This document shows positions 39,137 through 41,771 of a stretch of 64,000 bases of DNA, one piece after another. Source of the stretch: Nannocystales bacterium (lineage in GTDB: Bacteria; Myxococcota_A; Polyangia; Nannocystales; Nannocystaceae). The position numbers were made by a program, and so were the translations under genes. The notes beneath the pieces are model-generated. The model did no database searches, was not told the DNA's origin, and saw only the letters and a program-made list of their open reading frames with translations. Numbering within the stretch: the first letter of the stretch is position 1; each line of letters starts with the position of its first letter. The stretch spans positions 64,001 to 128,000 of the forward strand of contig JBOEGF010000019.1 in NCBI GenBank assembly GCA_050633305.1, given 5' to 3'.

Positions 39137-40177
39137 TCATGGGGCGGGCGAGAGTGCGAACCCCGAGCCCGACGTCGGTATTCCTTCGGGCGTTAGACCG
39201 CGAAGGAGGGACGGGAGGTCCTGACTGCGCTTGAGGGTCGCGAACAACCCGGCGTAGACCTCGGACGCCGGCGCTGCGAGCCGTAGCCACTGTTTGCACC
39301 GTCCCAGCGCGACCGCCTCCGTGCCCCCACCATCGAGGATGCGCTGCGCATAGTCTCGGAGTCGCTCGCAGAGCCAGATCGGGTCGAGCTCGGGATCCCG
39401 GTGTCCGCGCAGCTGCCTGAACAGGCGGGGCCGACCCATGGCGCCACGCCCGATCATGAACGCGGTGCAGCCGCTGACCTGCTGACAGGCCTCGACAGCC
39501 TCGACCGTGTTGAGGTCGCCATTGGCCACGACGGGCATGCGTACCGCCTCACGGGCGCGCCCGATGCTGCCCCAGTCGACGGGCGGCCGATATCCCTGCA
39601 TGCGAGTCCGGGCATGGATCGTCAGCCATGACGCGCCGCCCTGCTCGATCGAGCGGGCGATGTCCTCCACGTGGTCGGCGTTCTCCCAGCCGAGCCGGAT
39701 CTTTACGGTGACTGGGATGGAGTCGGGGACCGCCTGGCGTACTGCCGTGGTGATCGCTTCCAGACGGTGCGGGAACTGTAGAATTGTCGCGCCTCCATCG
39801 CTCTTGTTGACCGTCTTGGCCGGGCAGCCGAAGTTGATGTCGATCCCTGGAGCTCCCATCTCGACACATCGAGCGGCCGTCGCGGCCATCGGCTCCGGTT
39901 GTCCTCCGAGTAGCTGAACGAAGACCGGTACACTCGAGGCTGTCGTTCCGCCGGTCTGTACTTCGGGGCAGTGCTTGAGGATGACCTTGGGCACCACGGC
40001 CATGCGGGTGACCCGGACGAACTCCGACACACACATGCTGATGCCGCAGGCGCCACCGTGCAGGCCCGTGAGCAAGTCGCGATAGACCCAGTCGGTCACG
40101 CCGTCCATCGGCGCGAGTGCTGCGAACAGACCCGGTGCGCCCGGGGTGCGAGCGACGCGGGGGTCGATGACGGTCAC
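39137..40177 (-). CDS. dusC: tRNA-dihydrouridine synthase, DusC-like
   Basis: LAPMDGVTD, SEFVRVT, VQLLG, DINFGCPAKTVN..GGATIL, VTVKIRLGW, TIHART and NGD. Confidence 0.88.
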   Translation of the reverse strand: MTVIDPRVARTPGAPGLFAALAPMDGVTDWVYRDLLTGLHGGACGISMCVSEFVRVTRMAVVPKVILKHCPEVQTGGTTASSVPVFVQLLGGQPEPMAATAARCVEMGAPGIDINFGCPAKTVNKSDGGATILQFPHRLEAITTAVRQAVPDSIPVTVKIRLGWENADHVEDIARSIEQGGASWLTIHARTRMQGYRPPVDWGSIGRAREAVRMPVVANGDLNTVEAVEACQQVSGCTAFMIGRGAMGRPRLFRQLRGHRDPELDPIWLCERLRDYAQRILDGGGTEAVALGRCKQWLRLAAPASEVYAGLFATLKRSQDLPSLLRGLTPEGIPTSGSGFALSPAP

Positions 40178-40458
40178 AGCGTGAGCTCGAGCTGGCCGTC
40201 GAGCTTGGGGGACCACGGGACCAGGAGGAACTCGTAGGTGCGGGATGGGGTCGCCCCGGCCCGGCTCCGAACCTTGCGGCAGATGAAGCCGGCGGGGGTC
40301 AGTCGCCGAGCTTCGAGCATCGCCCAGATCTCATGCTCGGTGTCCTGGGCCGCATACCCGTTGTGCTCGAGGGTATCCACGACGGAGCCCATCGCCATGC
40401 CTTGGTCGGGGGCGGATTCGACGAGGGCGACGATCGCCTGGCGGAGGGCTGAGCGCAT
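40174..40458 (-). CDS. Small hypothetical protein translationally coupled to dusC
   Basis: 94-aa ORF from ATG 40458; GTGA overlap with the dusC start. Confidence 0.6.
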   Translation of the reverse strand: MRSALRQAIVALVESAPDQGMAMGSVVDTLEHNGYAAQDTEHEIWAMLEARRLTPAGFICRKVRSRAGATPSRTYEFLLVPWSPKLDGQLELTL

Positions 40459-40518
40459 GGACGGCGGAGCATCGCGTGGGCGCCCCTCCGGCGCAAACGG
40501 AACTTTGGTGAAAATGCT

Positions 40519-40537
40519 GTTGACTTTCATTTTCATT
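40519..40537. promoter_or_regulatory. Fur-box-like operator overlapping a TTGACT -35 element
   Basis: GTTGACTTTCATTTTCATT in an AT-rich island; resembles the Fur-family TGAnAAT-n-ATTnTCA pattern with a perfect right half. Confidence 0.5.
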
Positions 40538-40547
40538 GTGGCAAAGT

Positions 40548-40678
40548 GGCTCTCGTTGGAGCCCGGTCACGAACGTCTTCGTTCGGCTCCTTGCAGGCAT
40601 CACCGGGCGAAAACGCCAAATGGCCAGTCGGCCCAATCGTAGCGTGGTGCGTCGCTGCGGTTGGGCCGACGTTTTTTT
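40548..40678 (+). ncRNA. Candidate structured small RNA (about 125-130 nt)
   Basis: Promoter-like signals upstream, several internal hairpins and a + strand intrinsic terminator, with no + strand gene nearby. Confidence 0.5.
40627..40678 (+). terminator. Intrinsic terminator on the + strand
   Basis: gtcggcccaatcgtagcg pairs with cgctgcggttgggccgac (18 bp including two G-U), 8-nt loop, then G and T7. Confidence 0.8.
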
Positions 40679-40715
40679 GCGGCGCGGGGGATCTCCGAGA
40701 ACCCGGGGAGCGCGC

Positions 40716-41771
40716 CTACGATTTGGCGGGGAGGTTGCCGGGCGCTTGGAGCTCGTCATCTTGCGCCGGGAACCACCGACTCGCGACGCGGATCGCGTTG
40801 GTCGCCGCGCCGAGGCGGAGGTTGTCGCCAGCAACCGTGAGGCACACGGTCCTTCCGCTCTCATCGCGGGGGTCGAGACGCAGTCGGCCGGCCAGCGTTC
40901 GGTCTCGATCGTGCACACACGCAAGCGCGGTGAGTCCCTCGCCCACCGGGCCTTTGTTCACGCTGACGAACGGCGCAGCGCTCGTCTGTTGTAGCGCGGC
41001 TTCGATCTCAGCCAGAGGCGCGGCGCGTTCGAGCTCGAGCCACACGTTCATGAAGTGCCCGATCGCCACGGGGACACGACAGCACTGTGCGCTGACCTTG
41101 AGGTGAGCCGCATCCAAGATCTTGCGGCTCTCCTTCATCAGCTTGCGCTCCTCGGAACTGAAGCCAGTTTCGTCGGTCTTTCCGCTATGCGGGACGGTGT
41201 TGCCAACGTACCCGGCTGGGTCGAGCTGCGACCCGACGCGGTTGGGCTCGGCATACCCCGCGCGAGAATCCTCGAGGAAGCCATCGAGAGCACCGATGCC
41301 GGCGCCACTGATCGCTTGGTACGAGCTGATCGCGACCGAGGTCAGACCGAACGCATGGGCCAAGGGAGCCATGGCCATCGTAAAGGGGATGGTGGTGCAA
41401 TTTGGGTTGGCGACGAGTTGGGTTTTCTCGCTCACGACCCCACAGTTGACGCCCGCCGAGACCAGCGGAACGCTCTCCTCCATCCGGTAGGTGTTGCTCT
41501 TGTCGACGACCTTGTACCCAAGCTCGACCAACCGCGGGACGTAGCGCTTGCTGTGCTCGTCATCGAGCGCGACGAGGGCGAGGTCCCCGCGCGGCGCGTT
41601 GTCTTCCTCGAGTTCAGGCGCAGCGAGCACGTCGAAGGTTTCCCCGGCGTGCTCCAGTTGTTTTCGTCGGCTCGCAAACCCGATGATCTCCGCCGTCGGC
41701 CAGGCGCGGCGGATCAGCGTGATGGACTCGCGGCCGACGAGGCCTGTGGCACCAAGGATACAGATGCGCAT
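40716..41771 (-). CDS. asd: Aspartate-semialdehyde dehydrogenase
   Basis: ILGATGLVG, ANPNCTT, YQAISGAG, EERKL..ESRKIL, CRVPV..GH and DNLRLGAATNA. Confidence 0.93.
   Translation of the reverse strand: MRICILGATGLVGRESITLIRRAWPTAEIIGFASRRKQLEHAGETFDVLAAPELEEDNAPRGDLALVALDDEHSKRYVPRLVELGYKVVDKSNTYRMEESVPLVSAGVNCGVVSEKTQLVANPNCTTIPFTMAMAPLAHAFGLTSVAISSYQAISGAGIGALDGFLEDSRAGYAEPNRVGSQLDPAGYVGNTVPHSGKTDETGFSSEERKLMKESRKILDAAHLKVSAQCCRVPVAIGHFMNVWLELERAAPLAEIEAALQQTSAAPFVSVNKGPVGEGLTALACVHDRDRTLAGRLRLDPRDESGRTVCLTVAGDNLRLGAATNAIRVASRWFPAQDDELQAPGNLPAKS

Follow-up and report, generated by a model that had tools for sequence, protein, structure and literature searches.

A predicted small RNA gene of about 125 nucleotides, encoded on the plus strand between asd and a conserved gene upstream of dus in a bacterium of the order Nannocystales, probably represents a new family of stand-alone, trans-acting, RyhB-like iron-sparing small RNAs that would operate independently of Hfq. 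The argument is computational throughout: conservation, covariation, a promoter pattern, a Fur-type box, complementarity and co-change were all computed for this gene. Iron-sparing small RNAs are a standard example of convergent evolution, and the present one, if true, would extend the class to the myxobacteria and former Deltaproteobacteria and to an Hfq-less, high-GC organism; it would also predict a new type of target, alternative complex III, and offer a testable case of the birth of a small RNA, the co-change of its targets and its repeated loss within a single genus.

The window, that is, the whole stretch of 64,000 nucleotides analysed here (G000:C19:64001-128000), belongs to a genome of 11.0 Mb with 66% GC and an estimated completeness of 92%. 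A sequence-only reading of this DNA had pointed to a 257-bp gap (40459-40715) with a minus-strand gene on either side, asd on one and a 94-aa gene followed by dus on the other, and re-checking of the coordinates bears this out. The features of the locus are as follows.

40174-40458, minus strand: conserved 94-aa protein, divergent neighbour upstream of dus (Pfam Dus), with homologs in 67 of 72 family genomes
40468-40496, minus strand: separate promoter of the 94-aa gene, TTGCGC-N17-GATGCT (-35 at 40496-40491, -10 at 40473-40468), outside the RNA gene
40508-40519, strand-neutral: conserved 5' operator extension, which together with the main box makes up a second, weaker box at an offset of 12 bp
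40520-40536, strand-neutral: Fur-type box over the -35, with 3 mismatches to WTGAAAATNATTTTCAW, assigned by consensus fit and matrix rank
40520-40525, plus strand: -35 hexamer TTGACT, invariant in 8 of 8 copies
40542-40547, plus strand: -10 hexamer CAAAGT (CAnnnT), with C, A and T invariant in all 8 full copies
40554-40678, plus strand: predicted small RNA of about 125 nt, with 8 homologs, covariation and no Rfam match
40554-40615, plus strand: 5' domain, made of P1 (40554-40557/40612-40615), P2 (40561-40566/40603-40608) and an inner hairpin (about 40569-40585), assigned by pairing and compensatory changes
40587-40601, plus strand: single-stranded core CUCCUUGCAGGCAUC, the proposed two-part seed (an anti-Shine-Dalgarno half and an anti-start-codon half), assigned by conservation and target matches
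40627-40678, plus strand: intrinsic terminator with an 18-bp stem, a GUGCGU loop and then T7; its 16 counted pairs are intact (100%) throughout the 8 copies
40716-41771, minus strand: asd, aspartate-semialdehyde dehydrogenase family, convergent neighbour (Pfam Semialdhyde_dh and Semialdhyde_dhC)

Conservation and covariation predict an independent non-coding unit endowed with its own promoter and intrinsic terminator. The TTGACT -35 and the weak -10 that had been proposed upstream of the RNA are found where listed and are conserved in 8 of 8 copies, the arrangement TTGACT-N16/17-CAnnnT recurring in every full copy within a stretch that is otherwise variable; the TTGAC of the -35 was imposed by the search pattern in the 4 metagenome copies, and the -10 was imposed by no pattern. 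A generic sigma-70 scan detected no promoter in front of the RNA gene, and the tRNA-Gly promoter of the same genome, TTGACT-N17-CAGTAT, shares the form of the RNA promoter. P1 starts about 7 nt past the -10, where the 5' end of the RNA presumably lies, and the 3' end is placed at the T-run. A small peptide encoded in the RNA gene was rejected on account of out-of-frame indels and the lack of a conserved ATG.

In the predicted fold, P1 and P2 enclose the inner hairpin and the 15-nt single strand, and the terminator comes next. Paired cells in the 8-sequence alignment amount to 96.9% for P1, 100% for P2 and 82.1% for the inner hairpin, 5 of the 16 counted terminator pairs are altered on both sides, and the GUGCGU loop is invariant across the alignment. 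For the structure as a whole, 96.8% of 247 cells are paired and 11 of 31 pairs are altered on both sides; 0 of 500 shuffles scored as high and slid controls were 27-51% paired, counts which are not probabilities because the sequences are related (G003 and G005 are near-identical) and the consensus structure was derived from four of the 8. In the four metagenome copies the search pattern placed no constraint on the stems. Stability alone does not fix the strand, because the reverse strand folds almost equally well (z = -5.1, compared with z = -5.2 for the region, with 0 of 200 shuffles equally stable, and z = -2.0 for the 5' domain taken separately); the assignment to the plus strand follows instead from the G-U pairs, the T-run and the promoter. 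Several elements of the sequence-only reading survive this analysis, namely the 18-bp hairpin at 40627-40670 with its two G-U pairs, followed by one G and the T7 at 40672-40678, the GCCCGGT/ACCGGGC stem (40561-40567/40602-40608), which contains P2, fully paired in the 8 copies, and the anti-Shine-Dalgarno-like CTCCTT at 40587-40592, now part of the conserved core. Two further hairpins had been drawn and are abandoned: ggctc/gagcc is unconserved and begins 5' of the likely transcription start, and ggcg-aaaa-cgcc is equally unconserved, its bases closing the two outer stems instead. The cgaacg-tctt-cgttcg hairpin is retained as the inner one, albeit as the weakest helix (82% paired) and in a register that varies among copies.

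The core CUCCUUGCAGGCAUC is identical in 7 of 8 copies, that of G006 having one extra U, and in the 4 metagenome copies TGCAGGCA within it was a requirement of the search pattern; the cost of opening it is about 2.6 kcal/mol. The earlier reading had regarded a match to a known Rfam family as fatal to its proposal, and none was found: the best hits had E-values of 2.2 and 8.5 and fell in unrelated families, and 7 further loci gave 0 matches at E<=1.

A DNA search of 60 relatives yielded full copies in G003, G005 and G006, all of them between asd and the 94-aa gene. The box-plus-core pattern, when run on metagenomes, gave 7 matches, four of which are true copies (L112, L115, L116 and L118; 132-158 bits) located at the orf-dus locus, L115 at a locus without an asd match, and three of which are due to chance, as are 17 of the 21 core-pattern matches within the family. 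A GTDB pattern scan returned at least 119 matching stretches; of the 80 examined only L124 scored, and since its RNA duplicates one present in the alignment it does not add to the homolog count. The covariance models R1 and R2, applied with strict filters and few candidates scored, matched strongly in 4 of 72 family genomes only, and the weak matches inspected (12 of R1 and 4 of R2) are Fur-box promoters, plain terminators or coding DNA. No second copy was found in the RNA's own genome by blastn, core scan or RNA model.

The RNA is absent from 3 of the 7 genomes of the genus. G001 has kept the Fur box and lost the -10 and the RNA body, in G002 the box seems to have decayed, and the locus of G004 shows a gap of about 60 bp; the RNA model found no relocated copy in any of the three assemblies (77%, 92% and 90% complete, respectively). 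In the orf+dus tree (supports 51-100; 71-80 for the placement of G004) lineages with the RNA make up the earliest split and also lie around G001 and G002. Ancestral presence in the genus followed by about three losses would be the simplest reading. As a separate observation, the interval from the RNA to asd is longer by about 220 bases in G003 and G005 (L005 and L004), the added sequence containing repeats of GTGAGTGCGTC-like units as well as GC-rich hairpins.

The mode of action that we propose would run as follows. In the presence of iron, Fe-Fur seated on the box over the -35 would block a housekeeping-type promoter; iron shortage would lead to synthesis of the 125-nt RNA, ending at its own terminator, and the two closing stems would keep the 15-nt core unpaired, so that Hfq is probably dispensable. 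The 5' half of the core, CUCCUUGC, would mask the extended Shine-Dalgarno sites of Fe-superoxide dismutase and rubrerythrin, and possibly also those of cytochrome bc, 2-oxoacid:ferredoxin oxidoreductase beta and hemerythrin, and the 3' half, GCAGGCAUC, would mask the AUG of actA, the first gene of a heme- and Fe-S-rich alternative complex III operon. With these starts masked, ribosome loading would be blocked and translation of iron consumers would fall. We infer, in other words, that the RNA is transcribed, that Fur binds at its promoter, that pairing takes place in vivo and that repression ensues.

The conserved and accessible putative seed is complementary to the starts of iron-protein mRNAs at the sodB, rubrerythrin, actA and cytochrome bc sites, and a co-change with the seed is seen for sodB and actA. 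The sodB gene belongs to Sod_Fe (Pfam), and by its sequence signature we take its product to be of the Fe type. Its Shine-Dalgarno sequence is covered by GCAAGGAGTC in 4 of 5 genus genomes; the leader of G006 alone reads GCAAAGGAGTC, with one more A, and among the 8 RNAs that of G006 alone reads CUCCUUUGC, with one more U. Either RNA forms its stronger duplex with the sodB leader of its own genome (-19.2 vs -15.4 and -16.9 vs -12.2 kcal/mol). Neither 10-mer occurs at any of 25 sodB loci outside the genus. An assembly error looks an unlikely cause of the double insertion in G006, whose 16,504 aligned residues contain a single frame switch, compared with 0 in each of three other genomes. The RNA-less G001, G002 and G004 retain the sodB site as well; sodB was not found in G003 and G005 (84% and 72% complete), and the search for it covered genomes other than the metagenome lineages.

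At actA, the start sequence GATGCCTGC is the exact complement of the 3' half of the core. All 4 genomes with the RNA have it, as does G002, and G004 differs in having CCC; outside the genus, 0 of 24 actA starts carry it and all have GTG plus CCG or CCC for the same residues. The 9-mer occurs at 5 of 9649 called starts, and CCT makes up about 10% of internal Pro codons. The actA product has five CxxCH motifs and a cytochrome c7/c3 Pfam domain, the next gene encodes a 4Fe-4S protein, and our reading of the operon is that it would specify alternative complex III; the actA signal may go back to a single ancestral event.

Other sites behave differently. Those of cytochrome bc, korB and xdh overlap the coding sequence of the preceding gene, persist in the majority of genomes without the RNA and show no co-change with the G006 insertion. 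The hemerythrin site is not conserved: hemerythrin was found in 2 of 7 genomes, and the site is absent from G001. As regards the targets suggested by the sequence-only reading, sodB does have a good site; sdh, acn and bfr fail, inasmuch as acnA, sdhA/B and bfr, like nuoA, offer only 4-6 bp at the start. A match upstream of acnA (-43 to -35) was set aside as a target site because it is a palindrome facing a near-palindromic seed and is also kept in the RNA-less G004; the palindrome itself, GCCTGCAGGC, stands about 35-45 nt 5' of the acnA start in 3 of 4 genus leaders (L240, L238 and L242).

Tests for enrichment, all based on translation starts from our own gene calling, give a divided picture. 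There are 104 genes with AAGGAG (100 scanned together and 3 from an earlier scan, with 1 repeat copy left out), 14 of which have the seed-matching GC extension. With iron labels set by judgement, strict counting finds iron proteins in 4 of these 14 as opposed to 3 of the 90 genes lacking the extension (p = 0.006); under lenient counting the figures are 6 of 14 and 9 of 90 (p = 0.005). Among the 14 are Sod_Fe, rubrerythrin, a cytochrome b/c fusion, a korB-like subunit, a xanthine-dehydrogenase-type subunit and a CxxCH protein. Of ten iron genes identified through family searches, 2 reach at least 8 Watson-Crick pairs, compared with 52 of 9649 starts in the background (p = 0.0013); this result is equalled by 11 of 5000 full seed shuffles and, when the anti-Shine-Dalgarno hexamer is fixed, by 676 and 560 of 5000 control seeds (11-14%), at which level it is not significant. 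Starts with at least 8 Watson-Crick pairs encode proteins with at least 2 CxxCH in 3 of 52 cases vs 83 of 9649 overall (about 0.01, calculated by hand and post hoc). In a crude genome-wide comparison, 275 motif-labelled iron proteins, a labelling that missed sodB, rubrerythrin and actA, show no stronger pairing than the 9279 unlabelled ones (p = 0.59 and 0.35). Ranking by unconstrained duplexes gave no information; an accessibility-aware ranking places hemerythrin 9th, actA 11th, cytochrome bc 20th, rubrerythrin 32nd and sodB outside the top 60, and most of its top matches are unrelated to iron.

That the genome-wide enrichment is negative, and that the terminator has an invariant GUGCGU loop for which a plain terminator has no need, would both fit a Fur-repressed RNA acting mainly by protein binding or as a compact folded module instead of by masking mRNA starts; in the module variant the invariant core and the terminator loop could pair (GCAUC with GGUGC), a pairing without covariation because both sides are invariant. 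We consider this explanation unlikely, since it leaves unaccounted for the matched insertions in the RNA and sodB of G006 as well as the genus-specific silent bases at the actA start.

The iron-sparing interpretation is supported by the Fur-type box, by a core complementary to iron-protein starts and by two signs of co-change. WTGAAAATNATTTTCAW is the deltaproteobacterial Fur consensus as given in PMC545781, and the genome holds 4, 19 and 91 sites at 2, 3 and 4 mismatches, the box of the RNA gene having 3. Ten other intergenic loci lie within 3 mismatches, of which six flank genes for an HmuY/TonB receptor, imelysin/ExbBD or a siderophore-interacting protein, a seventh flanks a flavodoxin-domain cluster and three have no evident iron link; the same type of box also precedes bfd-bfr genes. 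A matrix built from 11 iron-gene promoter boxes of this genome, with the box of the RNA gene excluded, ranks that box 5th, 5th and 4th genome-wide under three backgrounds, although the matrix is not independent of the consensus because its training sites were chosen from consensus matches. Only 5 of 2855 equally AT-rich 21-mers, and 0 of 100,000 shuffles, score as high. The Fur box formerly proposed over the promoter thus appears to be among the best Fur-type sites of the genome. The second box formed by the 5' extension scores 11.0 vs 20.1 for the main box, and 12-bp tandem Fur-type boxes are also found at C11:10400/10412. The genome encodes three FUR-family proteins (the best at 115 bits), so that both the box over the promoter and a Fur homolog are present. 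No Fur-type box was found at feoAB or fur in this genome.

The plurality of FUR-family genes, the absence of a box at feoAB and fur, and the fact that the best targets, superoxide dismutase and rubrerythrin, are oxidative-stress enzymes could also indicate that a trans-acting RNA with the same seed answers to another member of the family (of the Zur or PerR type) or mainly to oxidative stress. This is improbable to a slightly greater degree, given that the same box precedes the genes for the HmuY/TonB receptor, imelysin and the siderophore-interacting protein and bfd-bfr, and that it matches the published deltaproteobacterial Fur consensus (PMC545781).

The main alternative raised by the sequence-only reading, that the AT-rich box is simply the promoter of the gene starting at 40458, is removed because that gene has a -35 and a -10 of its own, which are present also at loci without the box: the form TTG-N17-(C/G)ATGCT recurs at the majority of the 30 family loci, and 24 of these 30 have no Fur box. 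A wider version, in which the region is a cis element conferring Fur control on the orf-dus unit together with a 3' trailer or insulator of asd, and no independent RNA exists, would accommodate the constant location beside orf-dus, the box without a body in G001 and the folding of the reverse strand, and is the least likely of all, for the orf promoter is separate and lies 24 bp from the main box, L115 carries the element at a locus without an asd match, the G-U pairs, T-run and conserved -10 indicate the plus strand, and G001 lost the -10 along with the RNA body. The neighbouring gene deserves a few remarks of its own. A longer start assigned to it by the gene caller, at 40536, was rejected, homology beginning at 40458 with the promoter immediately 5' of that position. 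Across family genomes the gene usually stands immediately 5' of dus with a near-leaderless promoter; its 94-aa product has no Pfam family above the cut-off, and its nearest Atlas clusters are without names, a DsrD-like cluster at 0.89 being a lead only.

RyhB and PrrF are similar in size to the RNA of about 125 nt described here, and RyhB targets sodB. The enterobacterial RyhB (RF00057) and PrrF1/2 of Pseudomonas further resemble it in having a Fur box over the promoter and in the sodB and ferritin-like targets predicted here, and they differ in being Hfq-dependent and in using another seed, Hfq having not been found in this 92% complete genome. RyhB acts on ftn/bfr according to PMC7762939. 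IsrR of Staphylococcus and FsrA of Bacillus subtilis share with the new RNA a Fur box or Fur repression and an intrinsic terminator, both predicted here; in PMC9410917 they are described as Fur-repressed RNAs whose C-containing single-stranded seed masks the Shine-Dalgarno sequence and whose activity is Hfq-free. They differ in having three C-rich regions as opposed to one two-part seed in a multiloop, and in that the targets predicted here include alternative complex III, whereas the search for a good aconitase start site gave none; the known iron-sparing small RNAs that PMC9410917 discusses all have aconitase among their targets, and the paper also argues that any Fur-repressed transcript can be recruited as an iron-sparing small RNA. 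Pxr and the candidate MXnc1 of Myxococcus xanthus are likewise myxobacterial RNAs of an Hfq-less organism; the available portion of the preprint (bioRxiv 10.1101/2025.09.11.675593) states that M. xanthus is without Hfq and that these RNAs pair near Shine-Dalgarno sites, and it portrays them as developmental or uncharacterised and describes no Fur link. Pxr gives no Rfam match to the new RNA, and MXnc1 is set apart by description only, as far as that portion goes.

The Rfam models give no membership in the RyhB, PrrF, FsrA, IsrR or Pxr families. It is well supported by computation that the RNA would work like RyhB, FsrA and IsrR yet belong to none of them, thereby constituting a new family. In the literature searched, which was seen in part, contained few subscription papers and had the Geobacter Fur regulon outside its scope, we came across no Fur-regulated small RNA for the myxobacteria or former Deltaproteobacteria and no regulation of alternative complex III by a small RNA.

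A more ambitious scenario can be put forward tentatively: a Myxococcota small RNA family may have been born independently at the root of one Nannocystaceae genus, Hfq-free and equipped with a single 15-nt two-half seed (anti-Shine-Dalgarno plus anti-AUG) that would throttle Fe-superoxide dismutase, alternative complex III and cytochrome bc, with target co-evolution and at least three losses readable in the genomes, and an unrelated Fur-boxed RNA of G014 may have converged on sodB. The latter stretch, from another genus (L099:1501-1690; G014:C272:3362-3551, plus strand), has TTGACA-N16-TAGAAT overlain by a Fur-type box and, beyond it, about 140 nt of structured sequence, unlike that of the present RNA, ending in a hairpin and T6, with a small gene downstream; it gave no match to Rfam or R2, and its segment GGCUCAUGCUCC can pair with the Shine-Dalgarno sequence and start codon of the G014 sodB (-14.6 kcal/mol). 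It is possibly a second, unrelated iron-sparing RNA or else an attenuated leader.

Some minor observations arose from the same scans. Strong Fur-type boxes precede genes without an obvious iron link, encoding a Ppx/GppA phosphatase, an LCM-type methyltransferase and a DUF6796 protein (G000:C10:324416-324438, C18:642155 and C43:312926-312954), and a small Cys/His-rich protein without a Pfam match lies directly behind Fur-type boxes in several genera (G000:C4:32714-32974; similar-looking in L111, L102 and L099, more loosely so in L107). In L477 (G078:C172:10479-10506, minus strand) a Fur-type box and promoter stand ahead of a gene which, by its motif, we take to be like that of ribosomal protein S4, an arrangement that suggests a metal-regulated paralog. 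Atypical tRNA gene clusters that duplicate the housekeeping ones (G000:C13:26362-26583 and C27:100925-101282) are possibly of mobile origin, and a TCAAATCGGAAATCATTTTCCGATTTGA-like palindrome found in three intergenic regions (G000:C20:141243, C37:6097 and C38:27676) is possibly a transposon end or an operator.
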